NCBI GenBank assembly: GCA_963844715.1
Contig: CAWJPJ010000005.1
Location: 128,001-192,000, forward strand
Source: an uncultured Phycisphaerales bacterium
Lineage (GTDB): Bacteria; Planctomycetota; Phycisphaerae; Tepidisphaerales; Tepidisphaeraceae
Length of the DNA: 64,000 bases
Reading direction: 5' to 3'
Made by a program: the position numbers and the translations under genes. The notes beneath the pieces were generated by a model. That model was not told the origin of the DNA and did no database searches. It saw only the letters and a list, made by a program, of their open reading frames with translations. Every line of letters begins with the position of its first letter. Within the stretch, counting starts at the first letter, position 1. Positions 4,832-58,933 of this stretch are shown here, one piece after another.

Positions 4832-6383
4832 ATGAAGAAATTTATCTGGCTCATCGCCTTCTTCCTCGTCCTCGCGCTTCCCATCGCCATGCGCAGCCTG
4901 GAGCGGCTCCTCGACCGAGACCATCTCCGCCAGCACCCCGCGGCTCGTCATCATCACCATGCAGAACCGCGACATCTGCAACGAATTCCGCTGGGCCTTC
5001 TCCGACTGGCACCAAAAACACTACGGCTACCCAGTCGAAATCGATTACCTCACCCCCGGCGGCACCAGCGATGTCAAACGCCAGCTCGATTCCATCTACC
5101 GCTCCATCCGCGCCGCTCACGGCGGGCAACTCCCTCCCGAATCCCAAACCGATTCCGGTATCCAGCTCGCCTGGGGCGGCGGCGATCAATTCTTCGAACA
5201 CGAACTCAAACCCATCGGCATCCTCCGCCCATTGGATCTCACCCAATCGCAATTAAAGGAGATTTTCCCCCAGCCCGTCCTCGCCGGTTCCAATCTCTAC
5301 GACCAGCAGCGCGACCCCTCCGGCAAGTTTCTCCCTCCAAGATGGGTCGGGGTCTGCCTTTCCAGCTTCGGCATCGTCTATAACCAGGACCTCTGCTCCG
5401 CCCTGGGCGTCCCGGCCCCCACAACCTGGAACGCCCTGGCCGATCCGCGTCTAGTGGGCGCCGTCGCCCTGGCCGACCCTACCCACAGCGGCACCGCCTC
5501 CGTCATGTACATGATCATTCTCCAGCGCGCCATGGCCGACGCCGAGGAGCAGTTTCTTCAGTCACCCGCCAATGCTGGCAAAGACCCCGTGAGCCTCAAA
5601 AAAACCCCTGAATATCAATCCGCCCTCGACACCGGCTGGAAACGCGGCATGCAAACCCTCACCCTCATCGCCGCCAACGCGCGCTATTTCGATTCCGATT
5701 CCCAGCGCGTCCCCACCGACGTCTCCCTCGGCGACTCCGCCATGGGAACCGCCATCGACTTCTATGGGCGGGTCACCGAAGAAACCGTCGGCCCCCAGCG
5801 CATTCAGTTCGTCGCCCCCAAATCCGCGACCGCCAGCAACCCCGACCCCATCGCCATCCTCTACGGCACGCAAGGCCAAAAGCTCACCCTCGCCAACCAT
5901 CTCATCGAATTCATGCTCAGCCCCCAAGGCCAGTGCCTCTGGATCCTGCGAGTAGGCCAACCCAACGGCCCGCGCGAGCACGCCCTCCGCCGCGCCCCCG
6001 TCCGCATGAGCGTTTACGCCGACCGCACCGGCTGGGCCGACGACATCAACTATTTCGCACAAGCCGGAAACTTCGCCCTCCGCCCCCAGTGGATGGCCTC
6101 GATGCCCATTCTCCGCCCCATCTGGGCCGCCGCCTGGATCGACGACGGCGAAGACCTGCGATCCGCCTACAGAAAAATCCTCGCCCTCCCCGACCCCGCC
6201 CGCCGCGCCAAGCTTCTGACTGAACTAGCCGATCTTCCCATCACCCGCGCCGAAGTCGACCACCCGACTCCCCCCGAAAAAACCACCGACCCCGATCTCG
6301 CCCGAGCCACCCAGCGCCTGAATTGGGCAAAAAAATTCCTGGCCCATTACCACAAAGTCGCGGGCGAAGCGGAGGCCCAATAA
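4832..6383 (+). CDS. ABC transporter substrate-binding protein (Fe(III)/thiamine-type); indel at ~4900
   Basis: Signal MKKFIWLIAFFLVLALPIAM, then LVIITMQN...WGGG...PTTWNALADP...LADPTHSGT...AIDFYG. Confidence 0.85.
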
Positions 6384-17890: not shown

Positions 17891-18157
17891 ATCTTCGCGC
17901 CTGGGGGAGCGAATTAAATCTCCAGAAATCCACCGCGCTTGAGCCAGCAGCGGCCATTTAGGGAAGTGACCCCTTTTCGTCCGCCCTTTGCGCCGTGGCA
18001 GGCGGAGAGTTGGGGCCGAAATTCGCATGGCAGCGCGGTGGGCGTTCGTTGGAGCGCGTCGAAAGTCCTTCTCCAAGCGTTCGATTGGAGGGGTATGAGG
18101 GGTCTTTGGTCGACAATATACGCCGCGCGAGCGCGGCGGCCAACGGGGGGCTTCGCT

Positions 18158-25039: not shown

Positions 25040-25707
25040 AAGACACGGCCGCTTACCCGAACGATCCCAACCGCAATCCGTGCAAAGAAATCTCCCCGTT
25101 CGATGAGAATAAGGACCGTCGCCGCGTTCGCCGGGCGTTGACAGACAGCGAATTAGCCTTGTTATTTCAGGCAAATTCGAGCCGTCGCCTTTATTACATG
25201 TTCGCTTTCTACACTGGTTTGCGAGTCCGTTCATGTAAGGCGGCATTGTGGAACCATGTCGATTTTGACCATGCCACGATTACCGTTCCAGCCGCCAACA
25301 TCAAAGGCGGGCGTGAGCTAGTCCTTCCAATTCATCCCGTGCTGTTGGCTGAATTGAAAGCCGCCAAGCCGCCCTTTGCCGCCGCGACGGATTCAATCTT
25401 CCCCGTGGTCCCCAACGTCCTCACGTTCCACCGCGATTGCTACAAGGCTGGAATTGCCCGCTACGATTCAGCCGGGCGGCAGATAGACCGCCACGCACTA
25501 CGTACCACGTTCGGCACTGCCCTGGCCCTGGCAGGCGTTACACCGCAATTTGCGGCTCGATTGCTTGACCATCGGGATATCAATACCACCTTGAAGCATT
25601 ACACGGCGTTGACGCTGGCAGACAACGCCACTGCACTCTGCAAGATCAATGCACCGACAGCCGCCGGGCAAACAAATGGTCCCATCCCGACGACCAAATC
25701 AGCCTAG
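25040..25707 (+). pseudogene. Tyrosine integrase, C-terminal remnant
   Basis: NPC...DRRRVRRALT, YTGLR, DRHALRTTFGT, LLDHRDINTTLKHYT (R-HxxR-H-Y); no N-terminal domain or clear start. Confidence 0.8.
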
Positions 25708-25799
25708 ATATTGCCGCCTTGAAACGATGGACGCCGGATGGACAGACTTGTTTCCCATCGTGTCCTCAGTTGTCCTCAATTGTCACCATGAAAATCTAA

Positions 25800-26693
25800 G
25801 AGCCTCTAACAAAAATGCACTTCCCCATGTTTATGGTTGATCGGACAATACGGCTTGGTCTTAGCCATGGAGGGCTTTATGACCAAGCCGTTGGTGACCG
25901 ACGAGCTTTGGGAGTTGATCCGACCCCTGCTTCCCAAGCACCGCAGTGGTCCAGGAAAGCGCGGCCGGCCGCCGCTGGACGATCGCGCGGCGTTGTCGGG
26001 TATTCTGTTCGTGCTCAAAACCGGCATTCCGTGGGAATACCTTCCCCAGGAGATGGGATGCGGCAGCGGCATGAGTTGCTGGCGTCGACTGCGCGATTGG
26101 AACCATCGTGGGGTTTGGACGAAGCTGCACGGACTATTGCTGAATCGATTGCGGCGGTCGAATGCCATCGACTGGTCGCGGGCCTTGGTGGATTCTGCTT
26201 CCGTGCGGGCCGTGCACGGGGGAAAAAAACGGGTCCGAGCCCGGTAGATCGCAGGAAAAACGGTTCCAAGCACCATGTATTGACCGATGGCAACGGCACG
26301 CCGATGGTTGCCCTCCTGACGGCGGCCAACCGCCACGACATCACGCAACTGCTGCCGCTGATCGATGCGATTCCAAAGGTCTCGGGCAAACCGGGCCGGC
26401 CGCGCTGGCGGTTCGAGGTGGTGCAGGGAGACCGGGCGTATCACTCCGAACCGCACCGAAAGGCGTTGCGTCAGCGTGGCAGCCGCCCGTTGCTGGCCCG
26501 ACGCAACCGCCCGCACGGAAGTGGTCTTGGCAAAACCCGCTGGCCGGTGGAGCGTACGCTGAGTTGGTTGCATCAGAATCGCCGACTGCGAGTCCGTTAC
26601 GAAAAACGGCCCGACATCCACGCCGCGTTCATGACCGTGGGTGAGGCAATGATCTGTTGGAACAGGCTTCATTCGCATTTTTGTTAGAGGCTC
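25800..26693 (+). mobile_element. IS5-family element (894 bp, two-ORF type), copy 1
   Basis: TIRs GAGCCTCTAACAAAAATGC / GCATTTTTGTTAGAGGCTC, TAA duplications at 25797-99 and 26694-96. Confidence 0.95.
25879..26687 (+). CDS. IS5 transposase expressed via -1 frameshift at GGGGGAAAAAAA (~26218-26229)
   Basis: orfA TDELWELIRPLLP...KTGIPWEYLP...VDSASVRA; orfB GSKHHVLTDGNG...GDRAY...RWPVERT. Confidence 0.9.
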
Positions 26694-45263: not shown

Positions 45264-45323
45264 GATCTGTCATGCGATCTGCTTTTCTCCGATGCCGCAC
45301 CGAATGGGTGTAAAGGGGGGCTA

Positions 45324-45362
45324 AAGGGGACGTACCTCTTTAAAAAAGAGGTACGTCCCCTT
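45324..45362. repeat. Perfect 18-bp inverted repeat
   Basis: AAGGGGACGTACCTCTTT-AAA-AAAGAGGTACGTCCCCTT. Confidence 0.85.
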
Positions 45363-46577: not shown

Positions 46578-46702
46578 TCGCTATTCAATCCTGATCGTAA
46601 TCGTAATCGTGCGCATCGAAACGCCCGGACGTGAAATGCGAAAGCAAAAACACGATCGGGATTAAGATTAAGATTATGATTAAGAAGAGGAGTAGGAGAA
46701 GG
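46578..46702. repeat. Hexamer-repeat palindromic element A
   Basis: (AATCGT)n left arm, ~40-bp spacer ending GCAAAAA, (GATTAA/GATTAT)n right arm, AAGAGGAGTAGGAGAAGG tail. Confidence 0.8.
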
Positions 46703-46852: not shown

Positions 46853-48084
46853 ATGCATAGATCTTCGACCGAACTTATCGCGGCGGCGGTCAATGCCAGG
46901 CCCATCACGACCGGGCGAGGCATTCTCGACCGGCTTTTCAACCTTTCGTTCGGGGGATTCGTTTACAACCAGATCTGGGAAGATCCAGATGTCGATGCGG
47001 AGGCGCTGCGGCTGGACGCCAATTCTCGCCTGGTGACGATCTCCTCGGGCGGCTGCAATGTGCTGAACTATCTTGTCCACGACGTGGCCTCGATTGACGC
47101 GGTCGATCTGAATTCGAACCATTTACACCTGCTCAAACTCAAGCTCTGTGGCCTGAACAGCTTCTCCTGCCACGAAGACTTTTTCGCGTTCTTCGGAAAC
47201 GCCAGGGAGTCTGAGAACATTCGGCGTATGAAGTGTTTCTTCGCCCCAATCTGGATCACGCGGCCCGCCGGCATTGGGAAGGCGGCAAAGCGCGCAAGGG
47301 GCTGAAAAGAGAGCGCTACCGCTACTTCGAACAGGGGCTTTGGAAACATTCGTCGCTGGGCCGATTCCTTGGCTTCATGCGCGGGCTCGCTCGCGGCAAG
47401 GGGATGCGGCCGGCGCGTCTGCTGGAATGCACCACGGCGGCGCAGCAGGAAATTGTTTTCGCTGAGGAGATTGCGCCGTTCTTCAAAATGCGCACGGTGA
47501 GGGAGCTGGTGAAGCTGCCGTTTTTTCTTCATGGGCTGGGCGTTCCGCCGCGACAGTACGAGACTTTCAAGAACGAAGCGGCCGCCGGCGGGGTTCTCGA
47601 AGAATATTTCCGGCGCATCTGGCGGCTGGCGTGTCAGTTCCCGATCCAGGACAATTACTTCGCATGGCAAGCCTTTGGGGGGCGTTACGATACGACCAAT
47701 CGGCGGGCGATTCCGAGCTATCTCAAGGCGGAGAACTTCCCCGCACTCAAGGCCAGAGCGGGGCGCGTGAAGACGCATCTGACGTCGATGACCGGATTCC
47801 TGGCGACGCTGCCGTCGGGGTCGATGAACCGTTTCATCCTGCTCGACTCGCAGGATTGGATGACCCCCGAGCAGATCGGCGCCCTTTGGTCGCAGATCTG
47901 GCGCGTTGGGCAGCCTGGGACGCGGATCATTTTGCGCTCGGGGACGTCGGTGTCGCCGGTCCACGGGGCTTTGGCGCCGGAGTTGAAGGATAAATTTGCC
48001 TATCAGGAAAAGCTCTCTGGCGATCTTTTCCAGCGCGACCGCTCGGCCATTTATGGCGGATTCCACCTGTATGTCATGAATTAG
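46853..48084 (+). CDS. btaA: SAM:diacylglycerol 3-amino-3-carboxypropyltransferase (DUF3419); indel at ~47228
   Basis: FVYNQIWEDPDVD, ISSGGCNVLNY, AVDLN, NYFAWQAF, LLDSQDWM, DRSAIYGGFH. Confidence 0.9.
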
Positions 48085-48100: not shown

Positions 48101-48797
48101 ATGACGCGATCTGTCACATCCGCGCAAATGCCGCCGCCGCAGGCGCAGTTGATGGACCGAATGTATCGCGTGCAACGCTACTTCTATGATATCACGCGTA
48201 AATACTATCTATTGGGGAGGGATCGGCTGATCGCGCGGATGGGGGTTTCGCCGTCGGACAAGGTTCTGGAAATCGGGTGCGGGACGGCGCGGAATCTGGT
48301 TGCGCTGGCGCGAAAACACCCGGGGGCGCAATTCTTCGGCGTGGACGCGGCCAATGTGATGATCGAGACGGCTTGCAAAAAAGTGGCGGGCAACGGACTG
48401 GACGGAAGAATCCATCTCCGCCAGGGGTTGGCGGAGGGACTTGACGCCGGCGGGTGGTTTGGTGTGCCCGCTTTCGATCGGATATTCTTTTCTTACTCGC
48501 TCTCGATGATCCCGACGTGGCAGGCGGCGCTGGAGGCGGCGCTCGGGAATCTCAAACCCGAGGGGGAACTGTGGATCGTCGATTTTTGGGATTTGGGAGG
48601 GTATCCCAGAGTGGCGGGGAAAGTCCTCGCGGCGTGGCTGGAGCTTTTCCACGTTCGGCATCGGCCGGAGCTTTTGGTTCATCTTAATGAGCTGCAATCG
48701 TCGGGGAGGGGGGAGCTGAGTTTGGAGCCGATCGGGCGACGGTATGCATACCTACGCGCGGTTCGTCAAAAGCGCGCAATTCGCTTCTCAATCTTAA
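48101..48797 (+). CDS. btaB: Betaine-lipid N-methyltransferase (3' end uncertain)
   Basis: MDRMYRVQRYFYDITRKYYLLGRD, VLEIGCGTARNL, FSYSLSMIP, IVDF; follows btaA. Confidence 0.88.
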
Positions 48798-49840
48798 TCG
48801 TAATCATAATCATAATCTTAATCTTAATCCTTCACTCCGACTGCGCGGAGCTGAAAGACGAAGGCAAAAATATGATTACGATTAAGATTATGATTAAGAG
48901 CCTCTAACAAAAATGCACTTCCCCATGTTTATGGTTGATCGGACAATACGGCTTGGTCTTAGCCATGGAGGGCTTTATGACCAAGCCGTTGGTGACCGAC
49001 GAGCTTTGGGAGTTGATCCGACCCCTGCTTCCCAAGCACCGCAGTGGTCCAGGAAAGCGCGGCCGGCCGCCGCTGGACGATCGCGCGGCGTTGTCGGGTA
49101 TTCTGTTCGTGCTCAAAACCGGCATTCCGTGGGAATACCTTCCCCAGGAGATGGGATGCGGCAGCGGCATGAGTTGCTGGCGTCGACTGCGCGATTGGAA
49201 CCATCGTGGGGTTTGGACGAAGCTGCACGGACTATTGCTGAATCGATTGCGGCGGTCGAATGCCATCGACTGGTCGCGGGCCTTGGTGGATTCTGCTTCC
49301 GTGCGGGCCGTGCACGGGGGAAAAAAACGGGTCCGAGCCCGGTAGATCGCAGGAAAAACGGTTCCAAGCACCATGTATTGACCGATGGCAACGGCACGCC
49401 GATGGTTGCCCTCCTGACGGCGGCCAACCGCCACGACATCACGCAACTGCTGCCGCTGATCGATGCGATTCCAAAGGTCTCGGGCAAACCGGGCCGGCCG
49501 CGCTGGCGGTTCGAGGTGGTGCAGGGAGACCGGGCGTATCACTCCGAACCGCACCGAAAGGCGTTGCGTCAGCGTGGCAGCCGCCCGTTGCTGGCCCGAC
49601 GCAACCGCCCGCACGGAAGTGGTCTTGGCAAAACCCGCTGGCCGGTGGAGCGTACGCTGAGTTGGTTGCATCAGAATCGCCGACTGCGAGTCCGTTACGA
49701 AAAACGGCCCGACATCCACGCCGCGTTCATGACCGTGGGTGAGGCAATGATCTGTTGGAACAGGCTTCATTCGCATTTTTGTTAGAGGCTCTAAGATTAT
49801 GAAGAGGAGTAAGAGCAGGAGTAAGAGTAAGAGAAGGATC
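48780..49840. repeat. Hexamer-repeat palindromic element B, split by IS copy 2
   Basis: (AATCTT/AATCGT/AATCAT)n, spacer ending GCAAAAA, (GATTAN)n [IS] GATTATGAAGAGGAGTAAGAG... tail. Confidence 0.8.
48898..49791 (+). mobile_element. IS5-family element, copy 2 (appears identical to 25800-26693)
   Basis: Same TIRs, TAA duplications (48895-97, 49792-94), identical translations in all listed frames. Confidence 0.95.
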
Positions 49841-49845
49841 GCGGC

Positions 49846-50436
49846 ATGAATAAGACGAATCCCAAGGTCGATGGGTTTTTACGAAAAGAAAAAAAGTGGC
49901 CGAAGGAAATGAGGGAACTGAGACGGATCGTCCTTGACTGCGGACTGGTCGAAGATGTGAAGTGGCGGCAGCCTTGTTACACCTTCGACGGGAAAAACAT
50001 CATCATCATTCATGGCTTCAAGGAATACTACGCGTTTTTGTTCTTCAAAGGCGCGCTGCTAAAGGATGCTCATCATATTCTGGTCAGGATCGGCCAGAAT
50101 ACGCAGGCCGGGCGGCAAATTCGGTTTACGAATGTTGAACAAATAATCGAGATGGAGCCGATCTTGAAGGCTTATATCGGCCAAGCCATCGAAGCGGAAA
50201 AAGCGGGGCTGAAAGTGCCGCTCAAGCGGACTTCAGATTACGCAATTCCCGAAGAGTTCCGAAGTAAGCTGAATAAAACCCCGGGCCTGAAGACTGCGTT
50301 CAAGGCCCTGACGCCCGGGCGGCAAAGGGCCTACATCCTGTATTTTTCCTCGGCCAAACAATCCAAAACCCGGGTAGCAAGGATCGAAAAATGCCTGCCG
50401 CGAATTCTCAGGGGGAAGGGATTGGATGATGAGTGA
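49846..50436 (+). CDS. YdeI/OmpD-associated family protein (DUF1801)
   Basis: KWRQPCYT, FKEY..FLFFKGALLKD, ALTPGRQRAY, AKQSKTR, GKGLDD. Confidence 0.9.
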   Translation: MNKTNPKVDGFLRKEKKWPKEMRELRRIVLDCGLVEDVKWRQPCYTFDGKNIIIIHGFKEYYAFLFFKGALLKDAHHILVRIGQNTQAGRQIRFTNVEQIIEMEPILKAYIGQAIEAEKAGLKVPLKRTSDYAIPEEFRSKLNKTPGLKTAFKALTPGRQRAYILYFSSAKQSKTRVARIEKCLPRILRGKGLDDE

Positions 50437-50457
50437 AGCCGCCGGGGAGGCGATTTG

Positions 50458-50472
50458 ATGGATGTCACCTTT
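50458..50472 (+). repeat. ATGGATGTCACCTT motif, copy 1
   Basis: Exact 14-mer recurs five times; here 21 bp after the YdeI stop. Confidence 0.85.
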
Positions 50473-50536
50473 GATTTGTCTCGCCTTTGATTTGTCAGCT
50501 CTGAAAACTTGTCGCGCTTCACGGACTTGATTCCGG

Positions 50537-51278
50537 TCAGGCGTTCGTTCCGCCATCTACTGTGAGGTTCGCGCCGGTGATATATCCTGCCTCGGGCCCG
50601 GCGACGAACGCGACCAGGGCGGCAACCTCGTCGACGTGCCCATAGCGGCCGAGCGAGGCATTGGCCTTCTGCCCGACGGACCAGTCGCCGGAAGCGGGGT
50701 TCAAATCGGTGTCGATGGGGCCCGGCTGGACCGTGTTGACGGTCACGCCACGCGCCCCCAGTTCGCGCCAAACCCTGGGCAAACATCTTGACCGCCCCTT
50801 TGGTTGCCGAATAGGGCGCCATGTCCGACATCATGACTCGCTCGCCGAGGCACGAGCCGATCATAATGATCCGGCCGCCCGGCTTGAGAAACTTGAGCGC
50901 GGTTTTTGTCGCGACAAAGGTCCCGCGGACGTTGATGGCAAAGAGGCGGTCGAAATCGGCGAGCGTGGTTTCCTCGACCTTGGCGGGAATCGCGGTGCCG
51001 GCGTTGTTCACGAGAACGTCGAGGCGCCCGAATGTGGCGGCTGTTTTCTCCACCGCGCTCTTGACCGCTTCCGCATCGGCAGCGTGGGCCTTAATCGCCA
51101 GCGCCTTTCTGCCGGCGAGTTCGATCGACTTAACAACCGCCATGGCGGCATCCGCGCTGTTCGTATAGGTGATGCACACGCCCGCGCCATCGGCGGCAAG
51201 CCGTTTTGCGATCGCGGCGCCGATGCCACGCGAGCCACCTGTGACCAGTGCGACTTTGTCCTTCAATGGCTGAGCCAT
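50537..51278 (-). CDS. SDR oxidoreductase; indel at ~50775
   Basis: TGGSRGIG, NNAG, YSATK; VNTVQPGPIDT and ITGANLTVDGG in the shifted frame. Confidence 0.9.
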
Positions 51279-51688
51279 GATCCCGCGCCTTTCTTTGAAT
51301 ATGCTTTGGTCCGGGGGGTGCTAGGACGCCGGCCGCGGCTTATCAATAAAATTATTCTCAGCGCGCCAACGAGCGCGCACCTTCGAATGAGCCTGACCGT
51401 GAGATAACTCAACGATATCAGGCAGATCGTCAGCATCAATATTTGAATCCATCGTGCGGCCGTGACGGAAATGCCCACGCCGGTGAATAGTGCGACGTAA
51501 GCCGCGACGCACAGCGGGCACTTGGGCATCAACACAAGCAGCGTGGTCGGGAACAGCCACTGGATTCCTCGCCAGGCGCGACGAAAAAGACCCGGCGGGC
51601 ATTTGCCATCGCATGGATTTGGGCGATCCGGTTTTGCCGCCAGCGACTCTGATGCGGATTCGTGATCGCAAAATGGGCAGTTGCTCAT
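51263..51688 (-). CDS. Small membrane protein with PKCPxC motif
   Basis: LMPKCPLCVAAY plus TM segments; ATGA-coupled to the DUF899 gene. Confidence 0.65.
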   Translation of the reverse strand: MSNCPFCDHESASESLAAKPDRPNPCDGKCPPGLFRRAWRGIQWLFPTTLLVLMPKCPLCVAAYVALFTGVGISVTAARWIQILMLTICLISLSYLTVRLIRRCALVGALRIILLISRGRRPSTPRTKAYSKKGAGSWLSH

Positions 51689-52404
51689 GGGTGCTCCGCT
51701 CCTTCCTTGCCATATTCATCATGGCGGTGCCACCAGGTGCTCGCCTTGCTTCGCCGCCCACCGGCGGGGGAGTCTTGCCAATCCTCCTGACGGCCCAAAG
51801 GCGTGAGGTCGAGCAAGGTCCACATGTTCAACCCTTCGACGCCGCGGCCATTGGTATGGTAGGTGCGATAAACATCTTTATCGTCGTGAATGAACACGCT
51901 CAGGCCATATTTCTCGTACTCCTCGGTCGTGAGGCCGAGATCTTTGTTGAAGTCGGAGCCTTCGGAGGAGTACCAGGGATACACCCACCCCATCCGCTTT
52001 TTATATTTTTCGATATTCTTCAGAGGCGCCAGCGAGACCAGGCAGAAGGACGTATCGCGGGCGTGGAAATGCTCGATGTGGCCGAACTGATCCGTCACCA
52101 TCGAGCACCCGACGCACCCCGCGTCCGGCCAGCCTCTCACCGACGGCGCGAACATAAAATGATAGAGAAGGAGTTGCCGCCGGCCTTCGAACAGATCGAG
52201 AAGCGTCAGTTTGCCCTTCGGCCCGTCGAAGAGATATTTCTTTTCGATCCGCACCATCGGCAAGCGCCGCCGCTCCGCGGCCAGCGCGTCAAGCGCATGC
52301 GTGGCCTCCTTTTCCTTGACCAGAAGGGCGTCGCGCGCCTTTTGCCATTCGGCTTCACCGACGATTTTCGGGAATTTGATCGCGTTGTCGCCATGTGATT
52401 TCAT
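51685..52404 (-). CDS. DUF899 thioredoxin-like protein
   Basis: RRRLPMV, LFEGRRQLLLYHFMF, CVGCS, LDLTPLGRQE, WWHRHDEY. Confidence 0.9.
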   Translation of the reverse strand: MKSHGDNAIKFPKIVGEAEWQKARDALLVKEKEATHALDALAAERRRLPMVRIEKKYLFDGPKGKLTLLDLFEGRRQLLLYHFMFAPSVRGWPDAGCVGCSMVTDQFGHIEHFHARDTSFCLVSLAPLKNIEKYKKRMGWVYPWYSSEGSDFNKDLGLTTEEYEKYGLSVFIHDDKDVYRTYHTNGRGVEGLNMWTLLDLTPLGRQEDWQDSPAGGRRSKASTWWHRHDEYGKEGAEHP

Positions 52405-52454
52405 AAATCCGATCCCTTTCATTTGCCTCTTGTCATGCCACGTTGCCGCAGCCA

Positions 52455-53216
52455 TCACCCGTCGTACTCGTTGTGGGGCGCCCCTAGCTACCCTTGCTGC
52501 GTCCCTTGGGCGCACGGTCGAGCCAGGGGTACTTGCCCCAGATCGCTTCCACTCCGCGCATAGGTGGAATACGTGTGGTAGACAACGCCGTCCTCGAGCG
52601 CGAACGCGCTCATGCCTTCCCGCTCGCGTGCATAGGTTCCCACATCGGTCCCCGTCGTGGCCGCGTTATTGGCAGGCGCAGAGGCCGCCGCTTCGGCCCG
52701 GGCGATATTCATCACGGGGTCGTCGCGGCGGAAGTTGTAATCAGCGCCGTCGCGCATTTGCTCGGCAGTGAACGAGACGTGGAAATCAAAATTAAAGTCG
52801 CTCCCGAACGAAGACGCCCAGGGGAAAGTCCAGCCCTTCTGCCGCTTATATGCCTGCAACTTCGCCAGCGGCGCTCGCGACACCGCCCAAAGCACCACGT
52901 CGTGATTCGCCAGGTGGCCGGTAATCCCGTTGAAGCCATCCGCGATGGATGAACACGACGGACACCCCGCCTTGTAGTCGGGCCCGAACATGAAGTGGTA
53001 AACCAGCAATTGCGAACGCCCTCTGAAGAGATCGGGGAGCGATGCTTTCCCTTCATCGGTCTCGAAGATGTATTCCTTCTCGACCCGAACCCACGGCAGC
53101 TCCTGCCGGCGACGCGCCACCTCGTCGCCGTGCCGTGTCAGATCCTTCTCCGCCTTGAGAAGATCGAGCCGGGCTGCAAGCCACTCTTCATGTGTTCCAG
53201 TCTTGTGTCGAGTCAT
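52455..53216 (-). CDS. DUF899 thioredoxin-like protein (3' end frameshifted or degraded)
   Basis: RRQELPWV, LFRGRSQLLVYHFMFGP, CPSCS; WLDRAPKGR in the shifted frame. Confidence 0.85.
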
Positions 53217-53315
53217 GGTTTTCCCTCATTTCAGTTTTCCGCCATTGGGTTACCGTTGACCGCGTTATAAGTTGGTTTAGTTTTGCGCCTTTCACTCATT
53301 TGACGCATCCGTTGA

Positions 53316-54040
53316 TTACGCCCTAGCCGGCTCGGGTTGGAGGTATGCCGCGAACTGGCGCTCCAGCGCCTTGACCGCGCCGTTGCGCCAACCCTCCGCC
53401 ACGGACTCTGACATGGGATCGGGGAAGATTTCCTCCTCGCCTTTCTCCACTCCATCGAGGATGGCCCGCGCAACCGACTCCGGAGAAGCCTTGGGTATGT
53501 CCAGGCCTCTTGTCATGTCCGTGTCCACGGGGCCGGGAAGGACCCTATGGACGCTGACGCCCCGTCCGGCCAACAAAGTGCGCAGCGACTGCGACAGCGA
53601 AAACGCGGCCGCTTTTGAGACGGAATAAGCCGGGCTGAACGGCACGGCGGCAAGGGACGACAACGACAGCACGTTGACAATGGCTCCCCGCGACCGAGTC
53701 AGCAACGGCAGGAAAGCCCGCGTCACATCGTAAGGGCCGAAAAGATTCACGGCGAGTTGCTGTTCGAGCACACGCCGATCGCTAAGGTCATCGAATGGCG
53801 ATACCCCGGCGTTGTTGATGAGCATATCGAGAGATTCGACCTTATCGGCGGCTTCCCGAATCTGCTCCGCCTCGGTCACGTCCAGGGTCAGAGCGATGAC
53901 CCGCCGATCCGAGTGAGCCGAGGCTTGGCGCATACCGGCATACACCCGATTCGCCCCTCTCCTCAACGCTTCCTCGACCAGCGCCGCCCAATCCCACGAT
54001 TAGCTCCAGTGATCAGGATTGTCTTGTTCGCGATTTGCAT
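53316..54040 (-). CDS. SDR oxidoreductase; indel at ~53985
   Basis: MQIANKTILITGANRGIG, NNAG, YSVSK, PGPVDTDM. Confidence 0.88.
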
Positions 54041-54186
54041 AAACGGTCCTTTCCAAAAATCGGGCGAGCCGCGTTCAGCGGAAGTTATTTTCAAACGTAA
54101 TTCGCTCGACGGAGACACAAGGATACGTCCATCCCTTTCGTTTCTTATAGCTCGCAGCGCTTATTACAGGAGCCAGGGATCCAGTT

Positions 54187-54612
54187 CTATCCGCGCTTTT
54201 TCTCCGCGGCGCTGCGAATCATCTCCAGCATCTCTCCCCAGCCTTTGCTGACATCTTGCTGGAGTTGGGGCGGGATGAGACCCATGGCCTGGTGCGTGAA
54301 TTTCAGCAACGTGCCGCCGTCCTGTTCGGTGAGGCGGTACTGGATGAACGAGATCGCCGGATAGGACATCATCGTCGGCCCGACGAGTTCCAAAAGTTTC
54401 GGCGGCTTGATGACCTGGACATGTCCCCACAGGTGCCCGGTGTTATTGCCCAGGTCTCGGAACCAGCGCCCGCCGGGCCACGGCTCGAGCTTCATCTTCA
54501 TTTCCTTCATCGGGCCGTGGGGTTCGAGGACGGTTTCGAAGACCACATCCGCCGGCGCGGCGATCTGCACTTCTTTGACGACGTTGAGGACTCTGATTTC
54601 TTCACTGGCCAT
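54187..54612 (-). CDS. SRPBCC/AHSA1 domain protein
   Basis: IAAPADVVF, LEPWPGGRWFRD, IKPPKLLE, GW..ML. Confidence 0.85.
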   Translation of the reverse strand: MASEEIRVLNVVKEVQIAAPADVVFETVLEPHGPMKEMKMKLEPWPGGRWFRDLGNNTGHLWGHVQVIKPPKLLELVGPTMMSYPAISFIQYRLTEQDGGTLLKFTHQAMGLIPPQLQQDVSKGWGEMLEMIRSAAEKKRG

Positions 54613-55000
54613 GACTCTGCTCCTTTAAACGGGGTTGATGTTTGGACGCGGCCGGATCGTGGGCCGCGCGTTGTTTGGCTTTTCGTTCGGCGGCTTCCTT
54701 GATGCCGTCGAGATGTTCGGTCCAGAAGCGCTCGAAGTTTTGAATCCAGTCGTGCACAGGTTTGAGCTCCTTCGGGTTGAGCCGATACAGGCGATGTTGC
54801 CCCGCTTTGTGAACCGCAACGACACCCACCTTTCGCAGCACGCCCAGGTGCTTCGAAACAGCCGGCTGGGGCAGGCCGAGCTTGATGACCAGCTCCGTCA
54901 CATTACGTTCGTCCCCCAGGGCCAGGTAATCGACAATCTCCCGCCGCCGGGGCTCGGCAATGGCGTTGAACACATCCGAGGTCGTGGCGGCTCGAGGCAT
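54602..55000 (-). CDS. ArsR/SmtB family regulator
   Basis: DVFNAIAEPRRREI, QPAVSKHLGVL, YRLN. Confidence 0.92.
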   Translation of the reverse strand: MPRAATTSDVFNAIAEPRRREIVDYLALGDERNVTELVIKLGLPQPAVSKHLGVLRKVGVVAVHKAGQHRLYRLNPKELKPVHDWIQNFERFWTEHLDGIKEAAERKAKQRAAHDPAASKHQPRLKEQSHGQ

Positions 55001-55034
55001 GGGATTAGTATATTCTCGTATGGGAATATGTCAA
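55001..55034 (-). promoter_or_regulatory. Leaderless promoter with ArsR-type operator
   Basis: TTGACA-16nt-TATACT-6nt-ATG; imperfect palindrome ATATTCCC-ATAC-GAGAATAT. Confidence 0.8.
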
Positions 55035-55270
55035 GGAAAAATATTTGGGTGGGTTGGAAATCCTCCATCGGGCTCGATCGGAACGCCGCTGGGCTCAACA
55101 TAGGGAAGTTATCGCACATGCCGTTTGGCTGGAACGAAAAGCCAGGTCGGCCACGCAGCGCGTCGATCCGGGCCGCTAACGGAAATCGAATTTTGTAGGA
55201 TTGTTCGACCGTTGCTCTTTGAGATTTGATCGGGCTACCATTACCTCGATCAATTTGGAGTGAATCCAAC

Positions 55271-56023
55271 ATGCCATCAAAACTTTCTCGAAAAGTCGCG
55301 GTTGTGACCGGTGCATCCAAAGGACTCGGTGCGGAAATTGCTCGGCAGCTTGCAAGCGAAGGAGCTTCGGTTGTCGTCAATTATTCGACCAGCCGGTCGG
55401 GCGCCGACAAAGTCGTAGCCGACATCACCTCCAAAGGCGGCAAGGCCATTGCCGTCCAGGCTGATGTATCGAAGGCTTCGGATGTAAAGCGATTGTTCGC
55501 GGAGACGAAGAAGGCGTTCGGGCGACTGGATGTGCTGGTCAACAACGCGGGCATTTATCAGTTTGCACCGCTGGAGGAAATCACCCCCGAAGATTTTCAC
55601 AAGCATTTCGACCTCAATGTACTGGGCGTGATCCTGACGACCCAGGAGGCGGTCAAGCTTTTCGGACCTGACGGGGGAAGCATCGTGAATATCAGTTCCA
55701 TGGCGTCCACCGAGTCGTTGCCCAGCTGCGGTGTCTACGCGGCGTCAAAAGCCGCCGTTAATTCCCTGACGCGGGTTTTCGCAGCCGAGCTAGGTGGCAG
55801 GAAAATCCGCGTCAACACGGTTGCCTGCGGCCCGGTAGCAACCGAAGGCGCCGTCGAATTCAGCGATCCCAACAGCGACTTTTATAAAATGTACGTGGCA
55901 AGGGCGAAGCTCGGCCGCATTGGTCAACCGAACGACATCGCTCCGGCCGTCGTCTATTTCGCGTCGGACGATTCGAAGTGGGTGACCGGCGAAACGCTTT
56001 TTGTCACGGGGGGATTCGGATAG
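55271..56023 (+). CDS. SDR oxidoreductase (glucose 1-dehydrogenase/FabG-like)
   Basis: TGASKGLG, NNAG, YAASK, WVTGETLFVTGG. Confidence 0.9.
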   Translation: MPSKLSRKVAVVTGASKGLGAEIARQLASEGASVVVNYSTSRSGADKVVADITSKGGKAIAVQADVSKASDVKRLFAETKKAFGRLDVLVNNAGIYQFAPLEEITPEDFHKHFDLNVLGVILTTQEAVKLFGPDGGSIVNISSMASTESLPSCGVYAASKAAVNSLTRVFAAELGGRKIRVNTVACGPVATEGAVEFSDPNSDFYKMYVARAKLGRIGQPNDIAPAVVYFASDDSKWVTGETLFVTGGFG

Positions 56024-56060
56024 CTCGCAAATTGCCTTGGCCATTCATCGGGAGAGATTC

Positions 56061-56507
56061 ATGCTCGCTGAAACTTCGAATCAGTCCCACTTGCGTCGCT
56101 CGGCACAGATCCTTGGGTATACGACACTCCGACTGGCGATGGGAATGAGCATGGCGATGCACGGGCTGGCCCGCATGCCCAAATATCGTGTGTTTATCGA
56201 CGGGACGCTGAAGCTCTTCGCCCATTCGCCGCTGCCGGCGCCGGCGGTACGCGCGTTCGCGGGAATCACGCCATTTGCCGAGCTGCTAATCGGCATTCTT
56301 GTTTTTTTCGGATTCCGGACCCTGTTAGGCCTTACGCTCGGGGGCCTCTGGATGGTCATCCTGATATTCGGCAGCACCCTCATCGAAAACTATGAGGTTG
56401 TCAGTATTCAGCTACTCTACTCCCTGATCTTCTTTCTTCTCCTCCAACATTTGGACCAAAATATCATTTCGGTCGACGGGCTGATTATTCGCCGACGGGC
56501 AACCTAA
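56061..56507 (+). CDS. DoxX family membrane protein
   Basis: LRLAMG...HGL.R, PFAELLIG, SVD terminal motif. Confidence 0.8.
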   Translation: MLAETSNQSHLRRSAQILGYTTLRLAMGMSMAMHGLARMPKYRVFIDGTLKLFAHSPLPAPAVRAFAGITPFAELLIGILVFFGFRTLLGLTLGGLWMVILIFGSTLIENYEVVSIQLLYSLIFFLLLQHLDQNIISVDGLIIRRRAT

Positions 56508-56519
56508 TAAACACGTAAT

Positions 56520-56651
56520 AAGGTGACATCCATAATTTCCATGGGATTTCGAAAACCACCGCCCGCGATGACCGGGTCAATCGTTGAAGATTTCGCCGAT
56601 AAATTGGCAATCGGATTTCGGCGGATACCGAATTGATGGATGTCACCTTTT
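56520..56651. repeat. Inverted pair of ATGGATGTCACCTT motifs (copies 2 and 3)
   Basis: AAGGTGACATCCAT at 56520-56533 and ATGGATGTCACCTTTT at 56636-56651. Confidence 0.85.
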
Positions 56652-57074
56652 AGCCTTTTCTGACTTGGAAGCAATACGGGCGCTCTATCAGCATCTGCAT
56701 CCTTCGGATCCAATGCTGCCGACCGGCGAATTGCGCGAGGCCTGGCATGCGCTGCTGGGAAATCCATCGGTTCATTGCCTTGTCGGAGAAATCGAAGGGG
56801 TCCTTGTTTCGACATGCACACTTGTGCTCGTACCCAACCTGACCCGATCGGCCCGCCCCTACGGTTTTATCGAGAATGTTGTCACGCACGAGGCGCACCG
56901 GCGAAAAGGTCTGGGAACTGCAATTCTAAAAGGCGCCTCGATCTGGCATGGGGCCAAGGCTGCTACAAAGTCATGCTGATGACCGGCTCGACCAAAGAGC
57001 AAACCCTGCGATTTTACGAGCATGCGGGATTTCGGCGAGGTGAAAAGACCGCGTTCGTCGCCCGCCCTGGCTGA
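56652..57074 (+). pseudogene. GNAT acetyltransferase lacking a normal start; indel at ~56938
   Basis: DLEAIRALYQHL, VPNLTRSARPYGFIENVVT..RRKGLG, CYKVMLMTG, FYEHAGF; begins right after motif copy 3. Confidence 0.75.
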
Positions 57075-57274
57075 CTCCAGACCGTTCCCCTCGCGGCAGC
57101 GTCCGCAAAACGGATTCGACCGTGACTTATCAGATCCGGGTGGCCGCACACCAATCGAACTGTTTGCCTGCTTTTTCGCGAAATTCGGAGGCTTCGGCTT
57201 CGTCACAATAACGGCCACGTAACGTCACGGCTGTCAATATCCGCCCATCGCGCTTCCCCGTCACATGGTTCTTC

Positions 57275-58210
57275 GTGCTGCTTTTCGCGCTCGCGGCAGT
57301 GCGGACGTCTCTCTTTCGTTTTGTCCCGCCATCTGTCGTTCCGTATGTCCTCTGGCCTTACTTATTTAGCCCGAGCCTCGTTGGTCTGATCATGATTCTG
57401 TGGCTGCAGGGCCTCCCGGGGATTCGAAGAGTAGTCCAAAAGCTGACTCCCCGGGCGGTTGGGCGAGCTTGGCCGATGCTGGCAATCTGCGTGCTTTTGC
57501 CATTGGCGTGCCTGCCGCTGTTCATCGCTCTCCTAGCCGCGTGCGGCACCCCCGCTCCGTCCCTGTGGAGGATCAACCTTTCAGCATATTTCTACGCCGC
57601 GTTCATCAGCAAGGGATTGCTCGGGCCGGGAATTATCGAGGAGATCGGCTGGCGCGGATTCGCTTTGCCATATCTTCAGCGTCGTTACACCGCCTTGGCA
57701 AGCAGCGTCATTATTGGCGTCGCGTGGGCGCTGTGGCACGTTCCGTTTCTCGTGAACGAAAGCCCCGTACCCTGGCGATACGTGGCGCTGTTCATCCCCC
57801 AAGTCATCGTATATTCGATCCTCTTCACGTGGGTTTACAACACAACCGGTGGAAGCCTGCTCGCGGTGATCCTGCTGCACGGAGCCATCAACGCCCGGCA
57901 ATTTCTGGCCGATTGGCGCCTTCTGCCGGACACGGCCACGACGCAAATCCTGGAGGGGATGCCGTTTCTCCTCATAGCGGTCGCCATATTGCGGCGATAT
58001 GGGCCTTCAACTCTGTCTCGATGCGAGCGTGTCGCGGCGCCATTACCTGAGTCGTTGAATTCGCGGGCGACACCAACATCGATGGATGTCACCTTTTACT
58101 CCCACCCTTTAGCCGCTTCTATTTTTGGCCGCGCCCGTGTTCCGCAACCGCCCAAAGGCGGAGGTCTCCGAAAAGTTTCGCGAGTGCCGCAGGCTGGTAG
58201 TGGGCGTTAA
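57275..58210 (+). CDS. CPBP (CAAX protease/Abi) family intramembrane protease; termini uncertain
   Basis: EEIGWRGF, WALWHVP, LLHGAIN. Confidence 0.85.
   Translation: MLLFALAAVRTSLFRFVPPSVVPYVLWPYLFSPSLVGLIMILWLQGLPGIRRVVQKLTPRAVGRAWPMLAICVLLPLACLPLFIALLAACGTPAPSLWRINLSAYFYAAFISKGLLGPGIIEEIGWRGFALPYLQRRYTALASSVIIGVAWALWHVPFLVNESPVPWRYVALFIPQVIVYSILFTWVYNTTGGSLLAVILLHGAINARQFLADWRLLPDTATTQILEGMPFLLIAVAILRRYGPSTLSRCERVAAPLPESLNSRATPTSMDVTFYSHPLAASIFGRARVPQPPKGGGLRKVSRVPQAGSGR
58082..58097 (+). repeat. ATGGATGTCACCTT motif, copy 4
   Basis: Exact match, between the CPBP body and the mug stop. Confidence 0.85.
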
Positions 58211-58704
58211 TCCCGCTGGGGTTCGGAAGAACCCAGGCGTGGCTCCCGCCGAAAAGCGGCTTTTGCAGCCCGACGCGGGCGTCTTTGATGCCGGAGACGA
58301 CTCGATAGGGATGAATGCCGACAAACGCGACCACCGTCGGCCGCCAGCGCCTGACTTTCGCCTCAAGCCGCCGCCCGCCGGCGCGAAGTTCGTCGTCGGT
58401 CAGTTCATCCGCCCGCGCGGTCGCGCGCCGGACGATGTTGGTGATCCCGAACCCGAGGTCCAGAAGAAGCGATTCTTCAAACGGCGAGAACAGCCGCGGC
58501 GTGAATCCGCCGTCGTAAAGAGCCGGCCAGAATCGATTACCAGGCCGCCCGAAGTGACGCCCAATCGCGGTGGTGTACAGCCCGGGATTGATCCCCGCGA
58601 AAAGGACGATGAGGTCTTTGGCCGCAAGATCCGAGATGAACTTCCCGCGCGGCCAGGAGCTGCGCTTTCGTGGGTTTCCAGGGAGTGGGTAATGTCCGAT
58701 CCAT
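58119..58704 (-). CDS. mug: G/U mismatch-specific DNA glycosylase; indel at ~58648
   Basis: KPTKAQLLAA then LFAGINPG, HFGRPGNRFW, LPNPSG. Confidence 0.9.
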
Positions 58705-58875
58705 AGGCCGGCGTCCTCGAAGGGCATCCTGCGGCAATCGGAAGACTGTAGCGGGGCAATCTCAGAAAGAGAATCCAGTTGGAGAATCCAGTTGACCTGC
58801 TGCGGCAAAAGTTACCGCCGGGACCGGGAATGAATCGGAGGGAATCAAAAAAAAGGGAGAAAAAAGGAGAAAGAA

Positions 58876-58891
58876 AAAAGGTGACATCCAT
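58876..58891 (-). repeat. ATGGATGTCACCTT motif, copy 5
   Basis: AAAAGGTGACATCCAT, 42 bp beyond the S53 gene stop. Confidence 0.85.
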
Positions 58892-58933
58892 CATTTCGAC
58901 GGTGCTCAAAATTCGCGGGCCTCTCACAGTGGG

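Follow-up and report, generated by a model that had tools for sequence, protein, structure and literature searches.

Clustered gene-less ends of a TIRtron-like HUH/Y1 transposon in the genome of a Tepidisphaeraceae planctomycete

Why does one exact 14-mer, ATGGATGTCACCTT, recur five times within 8.4 kb of a planctomycete genome? The window analysed here is a 64,000-nucleotide stretch (positions 128,001 to 192,000 of contig CAWJPJ010000005.1, assembly GCA_963844715.1) from an uncultured Phycisphaerales bacterium of the family Tepidisphaeraceae. It carries the 14-mer at 50458 (+), 56520 (-), 56636 (+), 58082 (+) and 58878 (-). The initial annotation had counted the same five sites, with the last start placed at 58876. 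In 100 shuffled versions of the window it did not occur at all. The 4.55-Mb, 85%-complete assembly (G000) contains 11 exact copies, or 13 if a GTGG variant present at the left ends of a transposase element is included. When these were treated as 8 independent units, four of them fell within 8.5 kb, a clustering matched by 3 of 2,000,000 random placements. The motif had been interpreted as a polar cut/join site of a trans-acting enzyme, possibly a REP-associated HUH/Y1 transposase, at which small genes are captured or shuffled. The polarity and the trans-acting HUH/Y1 (RAYT-like) enzyme are supported, with the enzyme genes located on other contigs; the exchange of small genes is not supported, and the motif is part of a terminal inverted repeat (TIR) instead of a REP hairpin or cassette site. 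The best overall explanation, to which we assign a probability of roughly 0.7, is that the window copies are leftovers of a TIRtron that bear nick scars at their tips.

Searches of the window's contig revealed neither a Y1 gene nor a remnant of one, a profile search in all six frames covering the window itself; the initial annotation had likewise listed no such enzyme in the window. Two Y1 genes flanked by the motif, which the initial annotation had suggested looking for, were identified on contigs C6 and C8. In both, a 223-codon Y1_Tnp gene stands between two motif copies in inverted orientation. Counted from the left core, 771 nt are identical between these two elements, whose flanks differ; they part at +5 on the left side and at +3 on the right (positions are counted from the end of CACC). 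This identity, together with the divergence just outside CACCTTT, indicates that the element moved recently and that the CCTTT side is its outer end. The predicted breakpoints on the CCTTT side are borne out by these two copies and by the divergence of sister ends described below. The window 14-mer is thus very probably the core of the TIR of this 0.79-kb element.

The residues H60 and H62 of the HUH motif and the tyrosine Y121 are conserved in the transposase, which also possesses YVEANP, WSS, and YQ motifs and extends by about 100 amino acids beyond the core. Its predicted fold (predicted local distance difference test, 93) has TnpA-REP (4ER8) as the best structural match. The Pfam helix-turn-helix (HTH) and Bac_DnaA_C profiles matched none of five proteins searched, and the predicted model ends in three C-terminal helices. 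A C-terminal GRP motif, a putative AT-hook-like element, is present in 63 of 68 homologues. The NF047646 score of the protein is 65.5, the cut-off being 80. A TTGAC box, possibly a -35 element under autoregulation, lies between the left TIR and the start of the transposase gene, directly next to the TIR (G000 C6:612466-612500 and many homologous loci).

The association between motif and enzyme extends to related genomes. Among 67 homologous loci, this TIR core flanks 9 of the 11 Y1 homologues with at least 60% identity, the other two carrying one-base variants, and none of the 56 below that level. The closest homologues come from Phycisphaerae, many of them Tepidisphaeraceae, while plasmid records yielded distant homologues only. 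The motif was detected in 33 of 140 other genomes of the family and its reversed control in none; all 9 other family genomes with a homologue of at least 60% identity, among the matches listed, carry it. In these tallies related genomes are not independent, the sets of homologue loci and of genomes overlap, and one unpublished genome (G004) is counted in the genome tallies only, as motif-free. A transcription-factor site, separate from any transposon role, could be suspected from copy 5, which lies 165 bp upstream of mug, and from the intergenic position of 53 of 58 solo sites. The motif is, however, non-palindromic, three copies follow stop codons, and it is missing at homologous mug loci. 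The inverted pairs that bound the Y1 gene and track homologues of at least 60% identity largely refute this reading, which we consider extremely improbable.

The five window copies are gene-less remains of the TIRtron, namely one mini-element formed by copies 2 and 3 and three solo ends (Table 1). The GATTTG inner start of copy 1 is shared with the right end of the transposon and with a solo end at C6:618727. The mini-element has a 104-bp interior without a match elsewhere in the genome or in the fetched loci, and it is spanned with zero substitutions by a short-read contig of one study. In being short, gene-less, and enclosed by the TIRs of an autonomous partner it resembles a miniature inverted-repeat transposable element; its interior is, on the other hand, not derived from the partner, and no target duplication was found around it. 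Near-identical gene-less minis occur at 4 sites of another genome, G111. One metagenome-assembled genome (MAG) contains many transposon copies, 84-98% identical, in same-direction arrays with 0.7-1.6 kb between them, along with end fragments of 47, 50, 74, and 284 nt, all anchored at the tip. Close pairs of ends (at most 200 bp apart, n=27) were inward in 18 cases, direct in 9, and facing in none. Target duplications are not consistent: no flanking direct repeat of at least 3 bp was seen at 26 of 32 elements, a count made without a formal null. The single repeats do not resemble REP (repetitive extragenic palindrome) hairpins: they carry no GTAG tag, four single-repeat segments gave no strong hairpin on folding (z -0.5 to -1.8), and an Rfam search of the window between 44 and 62 kb produced no match.

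Table 1. Repeat ends and adjoining genes in the window (TIR, terminal inverted repeat; numbering from the first nucleotide of the window).
Feature	Coordinates	Strand	Remarks
Solo TIR, third family (GGGAAGTGACCCCTTT)	17960..17990	+	Cognate to Y1 gene at G000 C7:856 kb
Head-to-head mini-pair, other TIR family (GAGGTACGTCCCCTT)	45323..45362	.	No cognate gene found in the 85%-complete assembly
ydeI/OmdA (DUF1801) gene	49846..50436	+	Inner side of copy 1
Solo TIR copy 1	50452..50480	+	GATTTG + core + 11-nt tail; outer end rightward; 21 bp past ydeI stop
Tip duplication of copy 1	50481..50496	+	16-nt tandem, -5 to +11, one A>G change
DoxX gene	56001..56507	+	Stop 3 bp from left tip of mini-element
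Gene-less mini-element, copies 2 (-) and 3 (+)	56511..56658	.	148 bp, outer ends outward
GNAT acetyltransferase gene, ~8 N-terminal codons missing	56659..57074	+	Starts at +12 of copy 3
CAAX/Rce1-like protease gene	57239..58050	+	Inner side of copy 4
Solo TIR copy 4	58076..58115	+	Degenerate tip repeat; outer end 14 bp from mug stop
mug/UDG-family glycosylase gene	58119..58704	-	Outside both flanking TIRs
Solo TIR copy 5	58848..58897	-	T-rich duplicated tip; 42 bp past stop of 877-aa Ig-like gene

Copy 3 lies, as first described, where the GNAT gene should start. The right tip of the mini-element abuts this gene at the codon for S of an S-D-L motif. Among 95 homologues examined, 72 of the 74 aligned from the S-D-L point have at least 7 extra residues, commonly 8, and the missing start is not located on the mini-element's other side either. 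Its absence from both sides means that DNA was lost or that non-contiguous pieces were joined. The junctions at 56.5-57.1 kb are spanned without substitutions by short-read contigs, all from one study that probably includes the source sample and is therefore not independent. These contigs differ from the assembly by small insertions or one base at 47226, 51326, 53984, 54054, 56936, 57241, and 58645. Several assembly frameshifts, among them that of GNAT at 56936, are missing from them; several of the broken frames in the assembly are thus probably errors. One short-read contig lacks 5 nt in the tail of copy 5 (58868).

Do these ends serve to move the genes around them? The surroundings consist of ydeI/OmdA, a block of SDR, DUF899, AHSA1, ArsR, and DoxX genes, GNAT, the CAAX protease, and mug. 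It had been proposed that the transposase uses the TIR as a cassette site for capturing or shuffling such small accessory genes. The presence of four units in 8.5 kb speaks for this, as do the GNAT start lost on both sides of the mini-element, the transposon-gene-transposon arrays of the MAG mentioned above, and the order of ydeI, the ArsR-DUF899 cluster, and mug, which differs from that in two relatives belonging to a single genus, TIRs lying at the edges of the blocks. A further point is an inward TIR pair around 2.5 kb at L291:1460-3990 (G079), which encloses two open reading frames (ORFs) without a Y1 match. One of these belongs to the NAGPA family and a Y1 gene is 3 kb away; it is the best cargo candidate seen. 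A 742-bp repeat flanking one element (L042) is a doubtful cargo candidate, having no convincing ORF and recurring beside Y1 fragments.

The geometry of the ends, however, is not that of cassettes. The inverted pair formed by copies 4 and 5 around mug is real, as reported initially, yet their outer (CCTTT) ends face the gene, and copies 1 and 2 turn their outer ends toward the 6-kb block; these genes are consequently outside the ends and not inside an element. The window copies are in mixed orientation. At 58 solo sites scored with a crude gene caller, a stop codon was found within 60 bp on the inner side in 7 of 51 and on the outer side in 12 of 53 cases. Pairs 0.2-10 kb apart showed no bias (5 facing, 4 inward, of which 3 were the transposon itself, and 4 direct). 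Nine mug homologue loci in relatives are without a TIR bracket, and no window gene is repeated elsewhere in the genome. In three relatives from two genera mug stands beside ydeI or the DUF899 cluster and hence looks resident. An integron array is not indicated either, given the 3+/2- orientation, the lack of a hairpin, and a nearest tyrosine recombinase match 25 kb away. Gene capture is accordingly unlikely, and we view the 8.4-kb block as a local insertion hot spot with the neighbouring genes as bystanders. Because GNAT is truncated, the ends may still have had a local rearranging role; the points left in favour of reshuffling are the clustering, this truncation, and the gene order changed with respect to the two genomes of one genus.

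The second component of the favoured explanation concerns the repeat tips. A duplication scar had been described beside every copy. Copy 1 possesses a clear 16-nt tandem, TCACCTTTGATTTGTC followed by TCGCCTTTGATTTGTC (period 16, -5 to +11), and copy 5 a T-rich one of 14 nt; copies 2, 3, and 4 did not pass the duplication detector. The apparent scar of copy 3 is mostly the pyrimidine tail of the TIR itself, copy 4 is degenerate, and the second TTATTA at copy 2 is the DoxX double stop read in reverse. A broader survey covered 151 distinct sites from this genome, the family genomes, and the Y1 loci, sites near locus edges being excluded. Outer-side tandem duplications were present at 38 of these sites and at 2 of 246 non-TIR CACCTTT controls. 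With exact matches required, 31 of 164 sites from genomes scored as duplicated, as did 14 of 118 from metagenomes. The metagenome stretches came from a 17-mer scan with many chance-like coding matches and served only to list sister ends and exact duplications; a contig with a human gut label was left out. Of the inner-side matches of the detector, the 8 inspected were for the most part tandem repeats seen in mirror image. Each scar repeats, in tandem, the tip of its own TIR; most are 14-18 nt long and end 10-12 nt beyond CACC. Conservation of the TIR tail, with the consensus TTTTCAGCTTCC, fades at about +12. Three or more tip duplications are arrayed in a row at L188, L052, and L070. Ordinary replication slippage at T-rich tails, with no enzyme involved, is conceivable for pyrimidine-rich tails and for low-complexity ends such as copy 5 and those on C8. 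It is very improbable, because the 14-18-nt units take in the GC tip of the core and stop at +10 to +12 regardless of the tail, and because the non-TIR controls are nearly free of duplications.

In the 43 single exact duplications, the ends range from +4 to +13, with 35 compatible with +10 to +12, and the starts from -24 to +3; none continues into the flank. For sister ends, defined by a common inner flank, divergence sets in at +9 to +14 in 41 of 56 cases (two are probably chance coding matches). Joins are commonest 10-12 nt beyond CACC, where the truncation of GNAT (+12) also falls; a second class is found at +3 to +5. A tight outer and a looser inner boundary fit a nick near +11, extension to the bound core, and rejoining, and the outer rather than the inner boundary is modestly favoured as the fixed point. 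The reverse arrangement, in which the inner nick is fixed and extension runs outward, is disfavoured, as 0 of 43 duplications pass +13.

We give an even chance to a polarity in which the GGTGACATCC-reading strand is cut at the tip, the flank primes synthesis into the TIR, and the ends are rejoined. The enzyme would bind the GGATGTCACC core and the T-tract and would place its nick roughly 11 nt beyond CACC on this strand and not on the GATGTCACC-reading one, its tyrosine staying linked to the 5' end of the element. Host polymerase would extend the 3'-OH of the flank into the repeat, usually by 14-18 nt, until the bound core is reached, and once the new end is joined to the strand held by the tyrosine, the tip would be present twice in tandem. 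If extension ran further and the product were transferred, mostly to nearby sites, solo ends and mini-elements would arise, as would full copies and adjacent deletions, the lost GNAT start being an example. After cleavage by HUH enzymes a 5'-phosphotyrosine remains, together with a 3'-OH able either to attack this link or to act as a primer for synthesis (PMC8266576, PMC3333891), and a nick-extend-rejoin model has been published for the tandem addition of bacterial interspersed mosaic elements (BIMEs) by TnpA-REP (PMC3333891).

Several observations weigh against this explanation. Only two of the five window copies, 1 and 5, pass the duplication test. Twelve of the 56 sister ends diverge at +3 to +5, like the two transposon copies of this genome, which means that one fixed nick cannot account for all joins. 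Other TIR families display a weak excess of duplications with the same geometry (12 of 86 versus 4 of 68 controls). Among the 33 motif-bearing family genomes, 24 have no close transposase among the matches listed. At the low depth and with the distant relatives available, neither empty sites nor joints left by excision or circle formation came to light: four low-depth runs of one study contained no excision or circle joints at TIRs, which is uninformative either way, and in two same-genus genomes the matches obtained in looking for empty sites were only about 65-81% identical and on separate contigs. Finally, the inner boundary is clustered too, at -6 to -4 in 32 of 43 duplications, a pattern that a second fixed cut would explain just as well.

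The same element could therefore have been cut twice by a dimer in a staggered manner (about -5 and +11), followed by fill-in and rejoining, with an exchange of overhangs that would give rise to fast-changing tails. Apart from the clustering of both boundaries, this agrees with tails that differ between otherwise identical copies. A staggered cut alone, however, does not yield duplications of 21-74 nt or the 284-nt fragment that shares only the outer end, and characterised Y1 enzymes cut single strands (PMC3333891, PMC8266576). We regard it as a possible but clearly less likely course than a single nick with flank-primed extension.

Judged from its sequence, the element is a TIRtron as defined by Di Nocera, De Gregorio, and Rocco in 2013 (PMC3733652), that is, a Y1 gene (TIRYT) between non-REP TIRs, with several types per genome; the single, dimeric, and grouped TIRs reported there occur here as well. 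The core GGTGACAT agrees with the TIRtron sequence GGGGWSAS, which occurs in many but not all TIRs (PMC3733652), at 6 of 8 positions, and the family at 17960 agrees at 8 of 8. Binding and cleavage of the TIR by the enzyme is a proposal of that study, the main text of which does not describe tip scars, the position of the cut, or moves of whole elements. In our literature search, which took in few subscription papers and no supplements, the names TIRYT and TIRtron appeared only in papers of 2013 and 2018, and no paper on TIR tip duplications and no biochemistry of TnpA-Y1 subclass 2.1/RAYT group 1 were found.

The transposase probably belongs to this subclass, with which it shares the Y---NP, SS, and aromatic-Q motifs and the lack of REPs (PMC6006769). 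Its length of 223 aa is close to the subclass median of 238 aa, but it has NHWH in place of NHVH or NH[YF]H (PMC6006769) and no Pfam match to the C-terminal HTH of the subclass (Bac_DnaA_C, HTH_23, HTH_28), in a protein whose model ends in three C-terminal helices. Subclass 2.1/group 1 is the largest of the RAYT groups, present in 14.9% of strains (PMC6006769), and has the top duplication rate among true RAYT groups (PMC6006769, PMC5581495). A preprint (10.1101/2020.03.09.984088) linked the subclass to prochlorosin gene clusters, the causal claim being withdrawn. The TnpA-REP/BIME system of Escherichia coli has the same fold (4ER8) and a nick-extend-rejoin model that adds a tandem unit (PMC3333891); it differs in its GTAG-tagged hairpin, absent here. 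Unlike REPtrons, the element moves its gene together with its ends, and with no GTAG palindrome it is not a REP/REPtron. Nor does it show the subterminal hairpins, missing TIRs, and Y---Q motif of IS200/IS605 elements. IS91/ISCR rolling-circle elements offer an analogy in mode of action: the tyrosine resides on the 5' end of the element, and flank-primed synthesis gives one-ended products of variable length. These have an ori and a ter, whereas the element described here combines a small Y1 enzyme with two inverted, equivalent ends.

The genome encodes four Y1 types, each with its own repeat. The initial annotation listed sites at 45323-45362 and around 17960-17990 as related to the motif; they are real but represent ends from two other TIR families. 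A cognate gene of the GAGGTACGTCCCCTT family was not found in the 85%-complete assembly. Palindromes in which two ends meet tip to tip, their cores 8-10 nt apart, are found in other TIR families (G000 C6:877807-877838 and 878551-878583; C7:1286476-1286504; C7:246375); at C6:878 kb, both ends of the Y1 gene have a mirror copy that includes the respective inner flank, as though the DNA had folded back. Such palindromes were seen in 0 of 27 close pairs of the GGATGTCACC family.

Further repeats occur near the genes of the window. A repeat of another kind, imperfect and about 80 bp long (ACACC..T.GAACT...), stands ahead of the CAAX gene (57140-57225) and recurs at L281:5300-5380 and 6270-6350 and at G000 C4:90359; in G144 it lies on both sides of a CAAX homologue, in direct orientation and cassette-like. 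Short AT-rich repeat arrays (GATTAA/GATTAT, GAGTAA) at 46590-46700, 48780-48903, and 49792-49840 bracket the genes at 46.8-48.8 kb, and an IS5-family element (48904-49791) is inserted in one of them. A tyrosine-recombinase fragment adjoins the second copy of this IS5-family element at 25138-25800. An 18-nt imperfect tandem resembling the TIR tip of another family was detected 150 bp from a mug homologue at L279:1600-1640 (G143), with a GGATGTCACC end 1 kb away; the mug neighbourhood may attract TIR ends in other genera as well.

An HUH enzyme acting on inverted, hairpin-free ends fits neither the IS200 nor the REP models, and the scars define the substrate, strand, and position (about 11 nt outside CACC) for a cleavage assay. 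A further-reaching idea, which we hold to be doubtful, is that TIRtron ends serve as self-priming nick sites, seeded by the Y1 enzyme and re-used within a few kb, and thus allow local gene shuffling without hairpins or an integrase. It is similarly doubtful that the 8.4-kb block with its truncated GNAT gene is a product of such shuffling by one-ended transfer. If these ends do reorder their neighbours, planctomycete genomes would have a new source of plasticity at the local scale.

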